A stretch of 61,426 nucleotides of DNA from a virus. Its lineage: Duplodnaviria > Caudoviricetes. Numbering within the stretch: the stretch's first letter is position 1; each line of letters starts with the position of its first letter. The position numbers and the translations under genes are program-made. The DNA lies in the IMG/VR virus record IMGVR_UViG_3300030116_002629, positions 1 through 61,426 of that record, one strand, 5' to 3'. The notes under the pieces were generated by a model. The model saw only the letters and a list, made by a program, of their open reading frames with translations. It had not been told where the DNA came from and made no database searches. Shown piece after piece: positions 15,718 through 46,155 of the stretch.

Positions 15718-16842
15718 ATGGCAGCAATTACGCTGACTAATAACGCTATTTACTCACAGAAGATTAATAACTTTTCTGGTGAGTTATTCCGTGTAGGTGG
15801 TCAAAGAACTCCTTTCTTATCTGCAACTGGTGGATTAAACGGAGGTAAGGTTTTACAATCTACTTTCTGGCAAATCCAAGCAGCTGACAGTCACACAGTT
15901 TCTTCTGAGCCAACAAAAGGCCAAGAAGGAGCACAACCAACTGAATATCTCGGAAGAGATAGAGTTGCGTACACAGGTGTGACTCAGGTATTCCATAAAG
16001 GTGTCAAGATGACCTATACTGCAATGGCGACTTTTCAACATCAAAATCCATTTGACTTGAGTGCAAATATTATTAACTCATCAGATGGTGACGGAACAGT
16101 TACAGCAGCTGATAAATTATCATTATCAGGTGGTAACCCAATTGTTGATGAGTTCTCAGAACAACTAACTCTTGCTCTTGAAAAAGTAGCTCGTGAGGTT
16201 GAATGGTTCGCATTCAATGGTACTTTTGCCGATGGTGCTAATACAACACCAGGTTCAGGTACTCGTGAAATGAGAGGTATTTCAGAATATATTGCATTAA
16301 ATGCTAATGCTAATAACTCAACAGCTCCAGTCGCAACTGGCGGAAACATTTATTATAATGACTCTTCTGGTGACGGTTCTGGTGCTGCTAGAGTTCTTTC
16401 ATGGGATGCAATCGCAGGTGCTATGAAGCGTCTATATGATGCTCACGCACCAATGATTCAACCAGTGCTTTGTGTAAATCCAAAGCAACTACTTGACCTT
16501 AACAAGGAATTGTTAACTGGTACAGTAGGTATTACTGGAACTATCCTACCAAGAGATAGAAGTATCGCTGGTATCGACATTGATACTATCGTTACTCCTT
16601 TCGGTGCAATTGGTCTTATGGTCATCGACCCTAACATCATGCCTGCCGATTGTGCATTTATCCTTGACTTTGCTTTCATACAACCAGTATTCACAAATAT
16701 CCCAGGATATGGTACTGTGTTCGTGAGAGACTTAGACCAAGACGATTATGCAAGAGTTGGAAAAGCAGTTTACATGGAAATGGGATATGACTTTGGTCCG
16801 CCAAGTTATCATCTCAAATTCGTTGATGCTGATTCAGCATAA
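15718..16842 (+). CDS. Major capsid protein (HK97 fold, SU10-MCP/DUF5309-like)
   Basis: 374 aa, strong GGAGGT RBS; TPFLS, EGA..P, TQVFHKGV, EFSEQ..ALEKVAREVE, REMRGI and IVTPFG motifs. Confidence 0.85.
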   Translation: MAAITLTNNAIYSQKINNFSGELFRVGGQRTPFLSATGGLNGGKVLQSTFWQIQAADSHTVSSEPTKGQEGAQPTEYLGRDRVAYTGVTQVFHKGVKMTYTAMATFQHQNPFDLSANIINSSDGDGTVTAADKLSLSGGNPIVDEFSEQLTLALEKVAREVEWFAFNGTFADGANTTPGSGTREMRGISEYIALNANANNSTAPVATGGNIYYNDSSGDGSGAARVLSWDAIAGAMKRLYDAHAPMIQPVLCVNPKQLLDLNKELLTGTVGITGTILPRDRSIAGIDIDTIVTPFGAIGLMVIDPNIMPADCAFILDFAFIQPVFTNIPGYGTVFVRDLDQDDYARVGKAVYMEMGYDFGPPSYHLKFVDADSA

Positions 16843-27874: not shown

Positions 27875-30800
27875 TGGCTAAGAAAAAAGATAAACTAACT
27901 TTATTAAAAGAAGAGTTAGAAGAACTTTTAAATAAACCTAATAAAACTCCTGCTGATATATCTAGAACAAAAGATTTAGTAAATGAAATAAAATTTCAAG
28001 AACGAGCTTTAATTACTGAATCTAAAACTTTAGAACAAGGACAGCTATTGTTTGGTGATGCTTACGGTGATGCATTCAAAAAATCTTCTAGTAAAGAGCC
28101 TAAGAAAGTTATACCTACTTTTAAAGGTTCAACAGCTGCTGAAAAATTATCGAGAAGTGATTTTCGTTCTATAGGTTGGCGTGAAAGAAATTTTCCTACT
28201 GGTATTCCTGGTTTGCCTATTGAAGGTAATGAAGCTGCTATGAAAAGAGCTAGAGAAACTAAAGCAAAAATTAAAAAAGAATTAGATTTAGGTAAAAGTA
28301 GTGAGTTACTTAGTGCATCAGATAGAATAGGTATAGAACTTCCACCTTCTATACAAGAACAAATACAAACAACAGCAAGAGGTTTAGTAGAATCAAATCC
28401 TGCAGGTATTGACCCAGCTAAACAAGAACAATTTATTCAAGATGTAGCAGATGAAATGGCTGCACAAGTTGAAGAAGCAGCTAGGTCAGATGCAGGTAAG
28501 ATAAACATTATGGATTTTTCTGAAGGTAACCCTATGATTATTGAATCAAGACAAGGTACTGTAAAAGATTTGACAGAAGCAGTTGACCCTAAATCAAAAG
28601 CTGCTTCAGCTTATGCTAAAGAATTTGGTATAGAAACTAAATCAGCAACAGATAGTGGATTTAACATATCTATTAGAACATTAGAAGGTCAGCTAGATAT
28701 GATTAATGACACAATAGAAAATACTAAAGGTGAAAGATTAAATGTTGAAGAAAATCTAACTCCTAGAATATTAGATATTGAAAGAGTTAATAAGCGTAAT
28801 GCACAAGTTGATAAAACAGTAGCTGAATTAGAAAAACAAAAAAATATTATTTCTAATTTATTACAAGAACAAGTACAAACACTTAACAAAGAAACAGCTT
28901 ATGTATATTTACAAGGTAGAGATGTTATTACAAAATCTGGTAGTAAAACAAATAGAGAAAAAGCAGACAAAATAATTAATAAATTAAATATAACTGGAGA
29001 TAGGATAATAGAAGTAGAAGATTTAGATATTATGTATAAATCAAAATTTGAAAATAAAATGCCAAAACAAGATTCTCCTGTAACTAAAGAACAATTAATT
29101 ATGACTGAATCAGAAAGGCTTATTTCTAGCTGGCAAAAACAAATAAGTCCTGGTGCTCACAATTTAAAGACACAAGAGCTGGCTGACCCAGATGCAGTTG
29201 ACCCTGATGCTGCAAAATATCAAACTAAATCAGAAGCTGAAGGAAGTATTAAGTTTAAAAAATCCCAGTCTCCCATGACTAACCTTCTTAAGAACGCACT
29301 ACAAGATGCTGGTACTTTGCCAGGTGAAGCAGGTATGATTTCAGAAAGAATGGAATATACTGAAGGAGTTAATGAACCTAGAGGTAGAGATTGGTGGTCA
29401 GAGGGATATATTGTTGAAAAACAAGAACCTTCAGTTACTAAAGGTGAACAACACATAGGTCATTTTGGAGATGAAGGCTTTGATATTAAAGGAGTTGCTG
29501 GTCAACAAATTGCTAAATCAGAAGAAGGCAAATTTATAAGAGACGCTTTAAGCAAACCTGCAGTATTAGAAACAAATGTAGTCTTTGGTTGGAAACCACA
29601 ACCTTGGTTAAGTGGAACATTAGAAGCAGATGCAAAAGGAAATATAAAACCTTACAGTCCTAAAAGAGACCCACAATCTGGACAAATATTAAATCAACCA
29701 TTACCAGTAAAATCTTTTATAGATGATAAAGGAAATCTTACCAAAGCAGGACAAAAATATAGAATTGATGTACCTAAAAAACCTGACCCAAAAAATTATG
29801 CAGCTAAAGATGATTATAAAAAAGCAGAACAAATATATAAAAGTAATTTAGAAAGTCCTGCAAAAGCTACTGTATATAAAAAAGATTTACCAGGACATGA
29901 AGGACCTGAAATAGAATTAAAAGCAGAAGTTACAAAAGGATATGTTGGAGTTGCTGAATCTAAAGATGTAGATGTTACTATTACAGGTAAACAGGGACCA
30001 GGAAAGTTTGGTTCTAAATATGATTATGGATTAAAAGATATAGCTGCAAAAGGTATTGAAGTACCAGGTAAAGTTCGTGTTACTGATTATGGTAAAGGAG
30101 CTCAAGCTACTTTTGAAGTTAGCGATAGTGATTTTAGAAGACATCTTGAAACATTAGGTAGAGTTAAAGATACTAAGTATGGTAAAGCAGAAATAACAGG
30201 ATTAGCAAAAGGATTAAAAGGTGGAGAAGCAGCAACATTTGGAGGCCTAAAAGATTTCAATGTAGGTAGCCAAGATGTATTTAATATTCTTTATGGTGAA
30301 GCTAGAGAAGTTAGAAATATAAAAGTAGGTATTGGAGAGGAATTAATATCTGCTTCTAAAGAACAGTATGCTGCAGAAATAAAAGCAAATCCAGATGCAA
30401 CTGTTCCTAATAGACCATATGGTTCAGTTACTGAATCAGCTGTTAGAAGTTTTGCTGTTGATAAAGGTTTAATGGTAACAAATAAACAAGGCAAAGAAGT
30501 TATGCCTGGAAATATAAAAGGTAGAACAGCTAAAGATGTAGTTGCTTCACTAACTCCTTCTCAGTTACAACAAGTTGCACCTAAAGAACAGAAGTATTTA
30601 TTTCAATCAGAAGCTCAGCGTGCTCCAAAACAAACATTCTCATATAAAGCAACAGGTATTGTAGATAGCAAAAATAAATTTACTCACCTGTTTAAACAAG
30701 AAGATTACACTACTCTTAGAAAGAGTTATGAAAAAGATTTAGCATGGAAAGCTTATAGTGCAGCTGTAAAAAATAGAGGTGGCGTTAAAAAATATAGTAG

Positions 30801-36302: not shown

Positions 36303-36540
36303 TAGATTCTTTCTCCAATCTTTGTAAGTATCTTCTCATTGCTGATTCAGATATTACAATACCAAAGTTATCTTCAAGTAATCTTGATACAACATAAGGT
36401 CTCATCTTTATCTTATCTTTTATTACCCTGTTTTTTAAAGCAATCCAAAAAGGTTCTGCTTCTGGTGTAATTTTACCTTCAACATAGTTACCTTTTTTTC
36501 CATGCTCTGCTTCATCTAGCATTTCATTTATATCAGTCAT
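36295..36540 (-). CDS. Small HTH-like protein, probably leaderless
   Basis: VVSRLLEDNFGIVISESAMRRYL; TGCTATAGT at 36556-36548, 7 nt before the ATG. Confidence 0.6.
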   Translation of the reverse strand: MTDINEMLDEAEHGKKGNYVEGKITPEAEPFWIALKNRVIKDKIKMRPYVVSRLLEDNFGIVISESAMRRYLQRLEKESNA

Positions 36541-36594
36541 ACTGACTACTATAGCAGGATATAGATATAAGTAGATGATTTAAGAAGAAAGTAG

Positions 36595-36667
36595 TGGAGG
36601 TGGCCGGAATCGAACCGGCATTAGTCTAATACAGTTGCCTGTATTAGCTACTAACCTGGACACCCCC
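36595..36667 (-). ncRNA. Non-canonical tRNA-Ala-like RNA (tmRNA TLD-like) with no D-stem and no anticodon loop
   Basis: GGGGGUG/CACCUCC-A acceptor stem with G3.U70 and A73; T-arm GCCGG-UUCGAUU-CCGGC; central 14-bp helix closed by GCAA; CCA not encoded. Confidence 0.8.
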
Positions 36668-36751
36668 AACTGATGGAATACCGTGCTTAAGGTCGGAAAG
36701 GAGTACAACCCACTGTTGCCAGTTGCACGGTACTCCTTAATTTCCTTCCTT

Positions 36752-38263
36752 TTATCCTAGCTGATTTAATGCTAAAGCAAACTTCTTTACTTCATCAATA
36801 TTAGCTAGTCTGGTTATTCCTGAACGCTTGCATATTTCTATACAATCTTTCAATAAGTTTTCACTATTCTGATTATGTAAACCAAAGACATACATATCAC
36901 TCACCCATATTCTTTTAGGTGGTTGTTTAGATAACCATTTCAAAGCAGGGCCATCAACTAAGTTACCTCCGCCTGTATATTTATTTAAGTATTCTTGATT
37001 TACTCTTTTACCATTCTGTCCTATTATTCTTAACGAACCTGTATCCCATGCACCTGCATAGTTATCGTTATACATAGCAATAGTAACAGCTGGTAGTAAT
37101 TGCATTATATCTAGGATATCTTGTCCTGAAAAATGCATTGAACCTGATGCGTCAATTAATATTGTTCCACCATATACTCTTTGTTTTTGTTTGAATACTT
37201 TTTTATCCACACACCAACGATTCATATACTTAGGATTAACACCATAGTCCATTGGCCTATATTCTCTACCACCTTTTATTTTTGATTGCATATTCACATC
37301 AAGATATGGTTTAAATATCTCCATCTTTCCCCACTTACCCATATCATTTGGTTGTGGTTTGTAGTTCATATTACCATCATTGGTAGCATTAAATATCTGC
37401 TCTTTGTTACGCTGCATTAACTCATCTAATGTTTCCATTCCTTCCATATCGCCTTCACCATCTTGTTCAGTAGATGAACTGTTAGCTTTACGATTGGCAT
37501 TCATGGCTTGTTCTTTAGCTTGTTTAGCTTTTCTAGCTTTTTCAAGAACTTCATGTTCTTTAGGCTTGTCATTGAACTCATCCATTAATTTGTTGAGTAT
37601 TATTGCAGCTTGTCTAGTTTTATTGTATTTAGTTGGTTTTCTATAATAACCTCTACTATAAGTTATCTTTTGATATAACTTATTAGCTTGTCTCATAGCC
37701 CATTGCAATTGACCTAATCTTAATTTAGTCATTTGGTTTGGACTACCTGGTTCTATATTATGAACAGATTCCATTGCTTGTTTAATAGATTCAAATTCTG
37801 GTCCAGCAACACTGTGACTATAATAACTGCCACCTTGTCCTGGTCTCATGTTCATTAATATCCATGCAGTGATATCAAATACTGAACCGTTATACAATAT
37901 GTCTAAAGTTTTTTCTTCAAACTTTGGTTGACATATAGTCCATTCATCTAACCATAAATCTTTAACAGATAAATTATAATTAACACGAACTTCTTCGCAT
38001 ATTTCTATACAAATTTCACTTTCATAATCTTTTAATTTACCTACAGTTTTAGGACTCCACTTAGCATGGCCAAGTTCATGTCTTCTAATCATTTTGTTAT
38101 GGTCAGCACCACATAAATCACATACATCACCATTTGTAGGGACATACATTTCTTTAGACAATACAGATGTTCTAGGCTGTTTTTCGTCCTCAAATATTTT
38201 CCAAGGTCCCTCTCCAGAAGCTATTTCTGGAAAGGGTATCTTGTTATTCTTCTTCTTGTACAT
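36752..38263 (-). CDS. HEXXH metallopeptidase-like plus vWA domain protein (partner of the MoxR ATPase)
   Basis: RRHELGH; ILIDASGSM MIDAS motif; GGGN..D and IWVSD vWA motifs. Confidence 0.75.
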   Translation of the reverse strand: MYKKKNNKIPFPEIASGEGPWKIFEDEKQPRTSVLSKEMYVPTNGDVCDLCGADHNKMIRRHELGHAKWSPKTVGKLKDYESEICIEICEEVRVNYNLSVKDLWLDEWTICQPKFEEKTLDILYNGSVFDITAWILMNMRPGQGGSYYSHSVAGPEFESIKQAMESVHNIEPGSPNQMTKLRLGQLQWAMRQANKLYQKITYSRGYYRKPTKYNKTRQAAIILNKLMDEFNDKPKEHEVLEKARKAKQAKEQAMNANRKANSSSTEQDGEGDMEGMETLDELMQRNKEQIFNATNDGNMNYKPQPNDMGKWGKMEIFKPYLDVNMQSKIKGGREYRPMDYGVNPKYMNRWCVDKKVFKQKQRVYGGTILIDASGSMHFSGQDILDIMQLLPAVTIAMYNDNYAGAWDTGSLRIIGQNGKRVNQEYLNKYTGGGNLVDGPALKWLSKQPPKRIWVSDMYVFGLHNQNSENLLKDCIEICKRSGITRLANIDEVKKFALALNQLG

Positions 38264-39017
38264 CTTTTAATTCATTGTCATGTACATTAACATCGGATAG
38301 TTTAATAGCGTCAAGTAACTCTTCACCTCTATCACCGAATATCAATTCAGCTGCCATTTTCATTGGCGTACCTTTTTGTTGAAGTTCAAAGTATTCTCTC
38401 CAACTTCTAACTGATATTCTTTCTTCCATATCCTCTGATAATGAAGTATCTTGTATCACTTGATGCCATGTTTTAGGAAACATCCTTAATGCACTAGGAT
38501 GAATCTCATCAACATGTATTTTAACTGGGAACCTATCTTTAAGTGCCATTGGTAGGCTTTCAGGTAGGCTGTTAGTTGTAGCAATAACATTAAAACCTGA
38601 TTTAGGCCTTACTGTTTCTTTGTCGTCATTATTTAATGTCAACTGTGCTATATCTTTATCATCAAGGATAGCATGTAAGAATGTCATGGCGTCTGGACTA
38701 GCGTGGTCAATCTCATTGACTACCAATCTTCCACCATTTCTCCATGCTTGAATTGCTATACCATCATGCCATTCAAATCCACCGTCAGAGTTTGGCTTGT
38801 AAAAGCCTTCTAAGTTTGCACTAGCAGTATCCTCTGTCATTGTGATTTGATATACATTTGGGTCGCCATTCATATTCAATCCAACCTTATTGGTTGCAGC
38901 AGCATATGTTTTACCAGTCCCTGGTGGACCGTACAACAATATTCTATCGGAGTTTCCGATTGCTGATTTTACTTTATCCCAACAAGTAACTACTTTCGTA
39001 GTCTCTTTCTCACTCAT
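38244..39017 (-). CDS. MoxR/CbbQ/CobS-type AAA+ ATPase
   Basis: GPPGTGKT Walker A; LVVNEID Walker B; IATTN; ALKDRF. Confidence 0.9.
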   Translation of the reverse strand: MSEKETTKVVTCWDKVKSAIGNSDRILLYGPPGTGKTYAAATNKVGLNMNGDPNVYQITMTEDTASANLEGFYKPNSDGGFEWHDGIAIQAWRNGGRLVVNEIDHASPDAMTFLHAILDDKDIAQLTLNNDDKETVRPKSGFNVIATTNSLPESLPMALKDRFPVKIHVDEIHPSALRMFPKTWHQVIQDTSLSEDMEERISVRSWREYFELQQKGTPMKMAAELIFGDRGEELLDAIKLSDVNVHDNELKDVQEEE

Positions 39018-44238: not shown

Positions 44239-46155
44239 ATGTCTAACAAGCCCCATAAAGTTTGTGAAGGAACTGGGTGTAAAAAATGGTTAAAAGGAAA
44301 GCAAAGACGCTTTTGTTCTACTACTTGTAATAAAAGAACCTGGGCTCAAGAGAAAGCATCAGGTAAAGAAAACATTACCAAAGCTATTAATAGAGAATTA
44401 AAGTCAGATACTGGTGATTATGCTTCTGTAAGGAGGGGTACTTACTATTCAGAGTTTAAAGCAACCTACGCAGACGACTTAGCAGGGGGCCTAATCACAA
44501 CACTAGAGGTAGCAGAGGCCATTGGGACCAGCTCCGCTACTGTTTCACGCATGCTCGCTGCCTACAAGATAGATAAACAGAATGAAATAAATGCCGAAGG
44601 TTGGGAATTAGATGAAACCCAGACTGAAATTTTAAAAAATTTTTCTAGCTTTCGCTCAAAGTACTTTGCTACTGAAACCGGGGAAAAATTCGAGACAGCA
44701 GACTTTCATGAAAACTGGATATTAAACATAGAAGACTCTATAGAGAACGGTAAAGAGTTATTAATACTGTCACCCCCAAGACATGGAAAGACAGAACTAC
44801 TTATACACTTTGCTATATACCAAATAATGAAAAATCCTAACATAAGAATCATGTGGGTTGGAGGTAACGAGGACATTGCAAAGAATGCATTAAGTTCTGT
44901 ATTAGAACACCTTGATGATAATGAAAGATTGATAGAAGACTTTTGTCCACCAGGTACAAACTTTAAACCTGATAACCGTTCAGGAAAGAACTGGTCACAG
45001 AATCAATTTACTGTAGGTACTAGAACAGTACCAGGTATTAAATCACCAACTATGGTTGCTATAGGTAAGGGTGGAAAGATTCTTTCTCGTGACTGTGACT
45101 TGATTATTGCAGACGACATTGAAGACCACCAGACCACTATGCAACCTGGTGCAAGAGAGAACACTAGACAATGGTGGACCACTACTCTTTCATCAAGAAA
45201 AGAGGAACACACTGCTGTTGTAGTTATTGGTTCAAGGCAACACTCTGATGATTTATACCATCACTTGCTAGGCAATGAAAGTTTTACAACAATAGTTGAA
45301 ACAGCACATGATATGGCCTGTACTATTCCTGACCACTTTGTAGAAGAACATACTGACTGTATGTTATGGCCAGGTAAAAGAACATTCAAATGGTTAATGT
45401 CTCGTATGCAAGCTGCAGAGACAACAGGTGGTAGGAAAATTTATGAAATGGTTTATTACAATCAGGCCTATGTAGAAGGTACACAAATCTTTACTATGGA
45501 TATGATTGATAGTTGTATGCGTAATGATTTAATTATTGGGCAGGTACCAGGCAATTTACATTTAGTTGCCGGACTTGACCCTGCTTCTTCTGGATATCAA
45601 GCAGCTGTACTATGGGGTATAAACTCCTATAGAGGCGAGCTATTTCTTATTGATATAGAGAATAGACAAGGTGGGGGAGTGAAACATGCTTTGCAAATTA
45701 TGTCTGATTGGTATAGCAGGTATGATTTACAACATTGGATTATTGAAGAAAATGGTTTTCAAACTGCTATTAGACAGGATGATAAAATAAAAGAATTTGT
45801 TTTAAGGTCAGGTATAATGATGCAAGGACATGTTACTGGAAAAAATAAACATGACCCTATGTATGGTGTAGGTTCTATGGCTGGTTTATTTGAAAATCAA
45901 AAAATCCACCTACCAGTTGGAAATTCTGAAAGTATTGCTAAAGTTAATGCTTATAAACAACAATTGTTATACTTTGACGGGAAACCAGTGAATCAAAGAA
46001 ACAAAGAAAAGACTGATATAGTCATGGCTGGTTGGTTTCCAATGAAAGTATTCAGAAGAATGAACAAAGAGCAACTTGCTACTATGGGATTAGATTATAA
46101 TGCAAGTTACACAAACTTTGAAGGAAGCGACTATAATGAGGCACCATGGGGATAG
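44239..46155 (+). CDS. terL: Terminase large subunit with a fused N-terminal zinc finger and HTH
   Basis: PPRHGKT Walker A; LIIADD Walker B; GLDPA nuclease motif; N-terminal CEGTGC..CSTTC and LEVAEAIGTSSATVSRML. Confidence 0.9.
   Translation: MSNKPHKVCEGTGCKKWLKGKQRRFCSTTCNKRTWAQEKASGKENITKAINRELKSDTGDYASVRRGTYYSEFKATYADDLAGGLITTLEVAEAIGTSSATVSRMLAAYKIDKQNEINAEGWELDETQTEILKNFSSFRSKYFATETGEKFETADFHENWILNIEDSIENGKELLILSPPRHGKTELLIHFAIYQIMKNPNIRIMWVGGNEDIAKNALSSVLEHLDDNERLIEDFCPPGTNFKPDNRSGKNWSQNQFTVGTRTVPGIKSPTMVAIGKGGKILSRDCDLIIADDIEDHQTTMQPGARENTRQWWTTTLSSRKEEHTAVVVIGSRQHSDDLYHHLLGNESFTTIVETAHDMACTIPDHFVEEHTDCMLWPGKRTFKWLMSRMQAAETTGGRKIYEMVYYNQAYVEGTQIFTMDMIDSCMRNDLIIGQVPGNLHLVAGLDPASSGYQAAVLWGINSYRGELFLIDIENRQGGGVKHALQIMSDWYSRYDLQHWIIEENGFQTAIRQDDKIKEFVLRSGIMMQGHVTGKNKHDPMYGVGSMAGLFENQKIHLPVGNSESIAKVNAYKQQLLYFDGKPVNQRNKEKTDIVMAGWFPMKVFRRMNKEQLATMGLDYNASYTNFEGSDYNEAPWG

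Follow-up and report, generated by a model that had tools for sequence, protein, structure and literature searches.

An uncultivated marine phage, represented by the entire IMG/VR virus record IMGVR_UViG_3300030116_002629 of 61,426 base pairs (bp) (the whole stretch of DNA that was analysed, hereafter the window), encodes a tRNA-like RNA of 73 nucleotides (nt) on the minus strand. The phage gene for this RNA is genuine and conserved, and annotation does not record it. The RNA joins an acceptor stem with G3.U70 and the discriminator A73 to a canonical T loop and a long bulged hairpin; lacking both an anticodon and a tag template, it cannot decode or tag. Very probably it is a selected tRNA-like RNA gene whose ancestry lies in the end of a transfer-messenger RNA (tmRNA). 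We take it to be a tmRNA of the 'TLD-only' kind, i.e. one reduced to the tRNA-like domain (TLD), of a divergent type that forms a second architecture beside the one of Mycobacterium phage DS6A.

Fold of the RNA and its conservation among related phages

Read on the minus strand from 36667 to 36595, the RNA is GGGGGUG UCCAGG UUAGU-AG-CUAAUACAG GCAA CUGUAUUAG-ACUAA U GCCGG UUCGAUU CCGGC CACCUCC A, then CUA (Table 1). The minimum free energy structure calculated by RNAfold, which is also the centroid structure, consists of acceptor stem, linker, bulged arm and T arm. Its energy of -34.3 kcal/mol compares with -18.95 +/- 3.25 for shuffled sequences (z = -4.72), and none of 200 shuffles was as stable. 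An earlier note, made from the letters of this DNA, had described the same sequence and anatomy (acceptor stem, strand with GG, GCAA-capped arm and T arm), and both hold in the minus-strand reading and in the fold. It had also counted 14 bp in the arm and 6 nt in the D strand; the fold refines this in one respect, as G13 pairs with U48 and thereby gives an arm of 15 bp and a linker of 5 nt. No nucleotide separates the long arm from the T arm in this fold. The features of a canonical tRNA-Ala, namely a D arm, a 5-bp anticodon stem and a 7-nt loop with an NGC anticodon, are absent; instead, the 15-bp arm closes on a 4-nt loop.

Homologues of the 503-residue (aa) protein encoded just ahead of the RNA were found at 27 viral loci. 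Nine of these carry the RNA at the same place (protein identity 63-96%), 17 are without it at that junction (protein identity 54% or less), and one ends too early. A normal tRNA-Ala stands at the RNA's place in none of the 27. The possibility raised in the earlier note, that relatives have a normal tRNA-Ala of which the window copy is a uniquely degenerate form, is therefore not what was found; relatives have the anticodon-less layout or nothing there. Metagenomes scanned with the 5' 17-mer gave 44 loci, 13 with the RNA, the other 31 matches being unrelated and without tRNA or tmRNA calls, and a further viral scan with a 13-mer plus the 3' strand gave 17 loci. Twelve distinct variants are known from related phages and metagenomes, and all share one fold.

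Ten variants were aligned for covariation. Paired cells make up 96.4% of this alignment. Its covariation score of 0.183 was reached by none of 500 shuffled alignments, which gave 0.064, and slid controls gave 0.026-0.074. The RNA is thus far above chance, because it is conserved with covariation in its relatives. The acceptor stem, G3.U70, A73, C74 and A76 are invariant in all ten variants, with the 5' 17 nt fixed by the search pattern in five of the ten rows; the 3' strand CACCUCC, which the metagenome search pattern did not fix, is identical in all ten as well. The T stem is paired in every variant, and its pairs 2 and 3 appear as CG, GC, AU and UA (3-4 pair types). An arm of 35-39 nt with 14-15 bp is found in 8/10 variants, and the trailer is CCA in five and CUA in five. 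Within the window's own subtype, one relative (L247) replaces C27-G36 by the compensatory U-A and another (L269) changes the GCAA loop to GCGA. A more distant type (L186) has U-A/A-U swaps in the proximal helix and keeps the 2-nt bulge at the same place. Loops among the 12 variants are GCAA or GCGA (5/12), C[U(A/G)CCC]G (five) or others (two). The arm changes unusually fast: one contig shows 51 differences from the window over 1001 positions, and at least 12 of these, together with two insertions, lie inside the 30-nt distal arm.

Related phages hold the RNA in at least three genomic contexts. In one it follows the 503-aa gene; in another (L186 type) it precedes that gene by about 1.6 kb and is followed, after about 20 nt, by a strong ribosome-binding site; in a third it stands in AT-rich sequence between genes and has a T-run behind it. 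Five complete or near-complete relatives are without it at the first place, two of them having it elsewhere and three having none, and we therefore regard it as a selected but dispensable accessory RNA gene. These data bear on the idea of a relic, either a fragment of a tRNA or tmRNA in decay or what integration into a host ssrA gene left of an attachment site. The idea draws on reports that tmRNA genes are common integration sites and that phages often carry their 3' ends (PMC9004378, PMC11590407). It is disfavoured to the point of being scarcely credible here, as the two strands of the acceptor stem are both there and pair with each other, the 12 variants show compensatory changes and occupy at least three contexts, and the phage encodes no recombinase of the tyrosine or serine type. 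The earlier argument from intact pairing against a decayed pseudogene has gained weight from these variants and from the invariance of G3.U70 and A73.

As a separate observation, the linker reads UCCAA in 2/10 variants (L173 and L237), and the same two have the non-canonical T loops UUAAACU and UGCAAAU. This joint change of linker position 12 (36656-36657) and the T loop (36608-36614), seen as two events only, may mark a tertiary contact.

Kinship with tmRNA and with DS6A-like RNAs

ARAGORN called no tRNA or tmRNA gene across the whole window, and Rfam at gathering thresholds gave no match in it, as the earlier note had expected; standard annotation misses such phage RNAs because both stay silent. 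Below threshold the best Rfam family is tmRNA, RF00023, with 40.7 bits (cut-off 47; E 8.5e-15 / 1.8e-16) over model positions 1-374, 284 internal positions that belong to the mRNA-like part being skipped. The tRNA model RF00005 gives 26 bits (cut-off 29; E 9.1e-5). Relatives of the RNA score 30.2-51.4 bits on RF00023, one of them (in L176, 51.4) above the cut-off, and L186-type copies score 52.4 and 50.1 bits, also above it. A permuted two-piece tmRNA was considered and rejected (Rfam tmRNA_permuted, 15.4 bits, E 0.65, not significant).

An acceptor stem with G3.U70 and A73 is a feature of standard tmRNA that the window RNA shares, and so are the canonical T loop and the unpaired GG-containing strand in place of the D arm. 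Its 3' 23-mer, which covers the T arm and the acceptor strand, occurs at 27 places in species-representative bacterial genomes; at these sites ARAGORN called 21 tmRNAs and 2 tRNA-Ala, with no call at four. This distribution and the rank of RF00023 support the resemblance to the tmRNA TLD that had been noticed from the sequence. The bacteria concerned are taxonomically scattered, mostly metagenome-assembled genomes of Omnitrophota, and so indicate no host. Sixteen bacterial tmRNAs with the same 3' end were examined; they begin with GGGGGUG..GG followed by TCGAC, TCGAT or TTGAC, and have GGAC, AGAC or GCAC before the T arm. The window RNA has neither the exact UCGAC motif nor the exact GGAC motif, the corresponding model positions being deleted in the Rfam alignment, and its 73 nt hold no tag frame, resume codon or pseudoknot. 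The absence of a tag reading frame and of the UCGAC/GAC motifs had been stated before and is borne out.

A TLD-only tmRNA is reported from Mycobacterium phage DS6A (Mao et al. 2009, via PMC4131195 and PMC11915505). The novelty of the window RNA was overrated in the earlier note because of this precedent. A tmRNA database of 2025 is described as holding 79 phage sequences and, overall, 9 sequences classed as 'Standard, no CDS' (coding sequence) (PMC11915505). A full-text literature search gave no further phage case beyond DS6A, and the supplementary tables of PMC11915505 may list more; tag-less tmRNA-like phage RNAs in print come down to a single mycobacteriophage. We located the DS6A RNA at 28478-28560 of JN698994, where it ends in ACUA and matches RF00023 with 43.2 bits over model positions 1-374.

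Viral contigs were scanned with a loose pattern that returned at least 117 loci and that itself fixes G3.U70 and A73, so these cannot be counted as conserved. Loci that ARAGORN called as tRNA, or whose acceptor stem was not fully paired, were removed; at least 54 loci with 47 distinct sequences of 63-86 nt were kept among the pattern matches listed. DS6A and 19 viral sequences form one alignment, in which 12/18 pairs show compensatory change, and a covariance model of the DS6A family was built from them. With this model, 52 of the first 100 pattern loci score at least 43 bits: 16 belong to the training set, one is a relative of the window RNA, and 35 are others. Family members outside the training set reach 43-73 bits. 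The window RNA itself is matched over its full length with 40.4 bits (E 6.7e-7), and RNAs of its type with 34.3-46.3 bits. DS6A-like RNAs, as far as these matches go, look like a common phage accessory gene.

Common to many DS6A-like RNAs (in L002-L118) are a small hairpin and an internal loop whose 5' side has UAA(A) and whose 3' side has GAA. Among the matches listed, taken with the window copy, the first base of the trailer is C in 44/48 distinct sequences, and CCA is encoded in 18/48; several of the listed RNAs adjoin tRNA genes.

Proposed competition with host tmRNA and the alternatives

We tentatively propose, with a confidence slightly short of even, that the window RNA is an RNase P-processed, alanine-chargeable and non-decoding competitor of the host tmRNA. 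It would be transcribed at the end of a leftward operon of an AAA_5 ATPase and the 503-aa protein, RNase P would cut 5' of G36667, the CUA trailer would be trimmed, and the host CCA-adding enzyme would complete the 3' end. Alanyl-tRNA synthetase (AlaRS) would then charge the RNA through G3.U70 and A73, and EF-Tu would bind the charged minihelix of acceptor stem and T arm. The RNA could then rival host tmRNA for access to SmpB, AlaRS, EF-Tu or stalled ribosomes, so that in infected cells SsrA tagging would be damped, or stalled ribosomes would be diverted to tag-free alanine addition. The steps from processing and CCA addition to charging and SmpB binding are all inferred, as is the consequence for trans-translation.

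The invariance of G3.U70, A73 and C74/A76, set against helices that covary, argues that alanine charging and a mature CCA end matter. Peptidyl transfer onto a TLD-only tmRNA has been reported in vitro (PMC3895274, citing Shimizu and Ueda 2006), and a TLD-only molecule is described as a strong inhibitor of tmRNA, perhaps by titrating SmpB (PMC4131195; PMC11915505). We favour competition because of the conserved alanine/CCA end and the tmRNA-TLD layout, together with this reported peptide acceptance and inhibition. The phage itself has neither an SmpB gene nor a gene for a tyrosine or serine recombinase, which makes alternatives less likely. Among the functions listed in the earlier note, modulation of trans-translation accordingly has a published precedent in DS6A, whereas nothing computed here supports roles that involve EF-Tu or the stringent response as such.

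Several points weigh against competition. In E. coli, SmpB is reported to contact A15, U17, A334 (Trp122 pocket), C18 and G19 of tmRNA, and G19C abolishes binding (PMC8363625); these positions fall in UUCGAC/GGAC, which the window RNA does not have. The L186 type swaps the corresponding pairs, so that this stretch acts as a plain helix rather than as a sequence motif. The published inhibition was obtained in E. coli with what the sources call 'a similar molecule' (PMC4131195, PMC11915505). The DS6A-like architecture (UUCGAC, P2a, internal loop with small hairpin, GGAC) is not shared by the window RNA, and on the DS6A-family model tRNA-Ala genes score 27.8, 28.3, 30.1, 30.3 and 38.2 bits, which overlaps the range of the window type. 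Three of the five complete relatives do without any such RNA.

Expression evidence counts on both sides. The stretch is present in marine metagenomes of 11 studies, and RNA-library runs hold only small shares of it. A 180-nt metatranscriptome cDNA contig covers 36602-36782, i.e. the RNA, a structured RNA motif ahead of it (described below) and the final 30 nt of the 503-aa coding sequence; this contig shows neither ends nor strand and may derive from library DNA. Among four RNA-library runs compared, two (X16 and X17) hold only coding sequence away from the RNA and one (X15) is probably DNA. The RNA-library contigs compared showed no joints, ends or loose ends. Expression of the window RNA is thus hinted at, weakly, by one contig.

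Since the SmpB contacts are missing, three other explanations stay alive: a decoy, a processing signal and an alanine donor. As a decoy, the RNA would mimic the 'top half' of a tRNA independently of SmpB by offering an authentic minihelix of acceptor stem and T arm with a CCA end. It would act as a sponge for a host factor that works on tRNA or tmRNA ends, for example a defence toxin whose targets for modification or cleavage are the 3' ends or acceptor stems of tRNAs, or it would occupy RNase P, RNase Z or the CCA-adding enzyme. Diversification of the arm would be unconstrained in that case. The absent SmpB-contact nucleotides fit this idea, as does the retention of the acceptor stem and the UCCAG linker while the arm was replaced wholesale (at least 12/30 arm positions against about 4% elsewhere, between the window and one contig) and loop types switched among variants. 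Fast change of the arm is equally expected of a helix that is constrained only to pair, however, and there is no candidate toxin or target. Anticodon nucleases are excluded as targets because the window copy has no anticodon loop. We hold a decoy to be unlikely.

Genomic surroundings and comparison with known systems

The large terminase of the phage is encoded at 44239-46152 and the major head protein at 15718-16839. Cultured phages, among which the window has no close relative, gave no DNA match to the RNA region, and the terminase had no tblastn match above 28% identity. The RNA lies in a leftward block that runs from the AAA_5 ATPase through the 503-aa gene and the RNA to an 81-aa gene, a Mre11-like exonuclease and a Rad52-like annealing protein (Table 1). 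The stop codon of the 503-aa gene precedes the RNA by 84 nt and the next ATG follows it after 54 nt, and a simple scan showed no promoter or terminator beside it.

Table 1 Positions in the window of the tRNA-like RNA and its parts, the adjacent RNA motif and the two genes ahead of them.
Feature	Position	Strand	Remarks
tRNA-like RNA, 73 nt	36595..36667	-	G1 = 36667; discriminator A73 = 36595
Acceptor stem, 5' strand GGGGGUG	36661..36667	-	G3 = 36665; pairs with 36596-36602; 7 bp
Linker UCCAG, 5 nt, in place of the D arm	36656..36660	-	unpaired in every fold
Long arm	36620..36655	-	6 bp, AG bulge 36648-36649, 9 bp, GCAA loop 36635-36638
T arm GCCGG-UUCGAUU-CCGGC	36603..36619	-	perfect pairing
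Acceptor stem, 3' strand CACCUCC	36596..36602	-	U70 = 36598
3' trailer CUA	36592..36594	-	CCA not encoded
Three-way-junction RNA motif	36678..36733	-	right after the 503-aa stop codon, 10 nt before the tRNA-like RNA
P1 of the three-way junction	36725-36733 with 36678-36686	-	
P2 hairpin of the three-way junction	36712-36723	-	GCAA loop (GAAA in some)
P3 hairpin of the three-way junction	36691-36710	-	loop UACUCCUUUC
503-aa protein gene	36755..38263	-	phrog_33218, function unknown
AAA_5 (MoxR-like) ATPase, first gene of the pair	38247..39017	-	PF07728, E 2.3e-20

The 503-aa protein has no Pfam match and no useful PDB match by sequence or profile search. In the consensus of its family (12 homologues), the N-terminal part contains HELGH (HExxH) and the C-terminal part DASGSM (DxSxS, vWA type), and Atlas gave a vWA lead only. 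'AAA-vWA', the name under which the earlier note had placed the neighbouring genes, is a fair label for the pair because of the DxSxS consensus and this lead, beside the PF07728 match of the ATPase. A bacterial Y RNA/Ro system was considered and rejected: no Pfam family, TROVE included, was found in the 503-aa protein or 11 homologues, no Y RNA family of Rfam matched the window at E up to 10, and the window RNA ends in an acceptor stem. The ends of YrlA-like Y RNAs lie in the Ro-binding stem and not in an acceptor stem.

The 81-aa gene has no Shine-Dalgarno motif. Its ATG is preceded, at a distance of about 7-11 nt, by a TATAGT/TATACT box that relatives keep (36540-36560, minus strand), and the gene may have a leaderless mRNA. 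At the scale of the genome, 804-15010 and 48495-60582 are two co-linear blocks of five large genes each, with starts 47.7 kb apart. The first genes of the two blocks (1938 and 1935 aa) are 54% identical, and the other pairs are alike by size only. Complete relatives are 44-48 kb long. The 61-kb record may join one genome to part of a related one (a chimeric assembly), and true paralogy would also account for the blocks.

Between the 503-aa gene and the tRNA-like RNA lies a three-way-junction RNA motif, preceded by a purine-rich tract (36734-36750, minus strand). RNAalifold on 11 variants gave 15 pairs, 12 with compensatory change. The motif matched no Rfam family at E up to 10, and a 13-codon GTG frame that covers it in the window was rejected as a small gene, since it is not kept in relatives. 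The loop of its P3 hairpin has 10 nt, U(A/C/U)CUCCUUUC, which we take to be a copy of the anti-Shine-Dalgarno tail of 16S rRNA. The motif is also kept in relatives that have no tRNA-like RNA, and it may not belong to the functional unit of the latter.

Other contexts of the window type hold further forms. A window-type RNA at L186 2366-2442 has an arm that ends in the 13-nt pyrimidine-rich loop UUAAUCCCUUUUC; in the L237/L285 type (L285 2223-2294) a hairpin with the loop GCCUCCCCUUUGGU stands just upstream of the RNA; and a 66-nt form (L287) has, like the window RNA, a GCAA loop. CCUCC/CCCUUU loops recur near or in window-type RNAs. A general link between DS6A-like RNAs and CCUCC-type motifs was looked for and rejected (5/47 upstream, 4/47 downstream).

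With some doubt, the window type may be regarded as a new class of phage RNA, a non-decoding, alanine-accepting 'top half' whose acceptor end and linker never vary and whose arm is rapidly exchanged, which would act independently of SmpB and perhaps together with the three-way junction; we think this improbable. Such an RNA may, for example, shield host tRNA or tmRNA 3' ends from a defence enzyme, or occupy the enzymes of tRNA ends. If this were true, the phage would carry two mimics of translation RNAs side by side.

The same surroundings might fit a processing signal. Both mascRNA and viral tRNA-like structures are tRNA-like folds that end a longer transcript, could be cut by RNase P and stand beside a structured element, as may hold for the window RNA; they are eukaryotic or from RNA viruses, and are not known to have such an alanine identity or to be homologous to it. 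A fold of this kind could bring RNase P and RNase Z to the polycistronic transcript, and their cuts would set the 3' end of the upstream mRNA with the three-way junction, or the 5' end of the next mRNA; the small RNA would be a by-product. The RNA is indeed always in sense orientation at gene junctions, has neither promoter nor terminator beside it in the simple scan, and follows a conserved structured RNA by 10 nt. However, RNase P and RNase Z need none of G3.U70, A73 and C74/A76, all of which are invariant, and 17/27 related loci do without the RNA at that junction. The RNA-library contig is also uncut across the predicted RNase P site, a weak point, since contigs cannot show ends. Overall, this explanation seems to us quite unlikely.

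A charged RNA could, finally, serve as a non-ribosomal alanine donor by handing its alanine to a phage or host aminoacyl-transferase, and as it cannot decode it would keep off the ribosome. Strict conservation of the alanine identity elements and of the aminoacylatable end, in a window copy with no anticodon, is compatible with this role. It is nevertheless very improbable: none of the neighbouring genes scanned is aminoacyl-transferase-like, and the RNA occurs in differing gene neighbourhoods.

The proposed competitor of host tmRNA can be set beside three known systems. It resembles the TLD of standard bacterial tmRNA (RF00023) in an acceptor stem, T arm and 3' end that are identical over 23 nt to those of several phyla, in GG at positions 12-13, and in a helix that leaves directly before the T arm. 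It differs in having no pseudoknots, resume codon, tag frame or SmpB-contact nucleotides, and in scoring below the Rfam cut-off. The CDS-less tmRNAs of jakobid mitochondria and some plastids are described as holding little beyond the TLD, about 65 nt in plastids, and as presumably still acting with SmpB (PMC11915505). When the descriptions are set side by side, both they and the window RNA are reduced to little more than a TLD; the organellar RNAs are vertically inherited and most mitochondrial ones are permuted, whereas the window RNA is phage-borne and patchy.

The DS6A RNA is the closest in kind. Both RNAs are phage-encoded, about 75-83 nt long, and have an acceptor stem with G3.U70/A73 and a T arm, with no D arm and no tag frame; both match RF00023 end to end below threshold (43.2 bits for DS6A against 40.7), and both have a 3' end ACUA with no encoded CCA. 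DS6A has a tyrosine integrase, in contrast to the window phage. DS6A and the 19 viral sequences aligned with it keep GG(N)UUCGAC and GGAC and have a P2a of 6 bp, a small hairpin and an internal loop rich in A, whereas the window RNA has a 5-nt linker, no UUCGAC or GGAC, and a bulged but continuous arm of 15 bp capped by a GNRA loop. A second architecture without the known SmpB contacts sharpens the question of what such RNAs do, be it to block SsrA tagging, to rescue ribosomes without a tag, or to play a role unrelated to SmpB.

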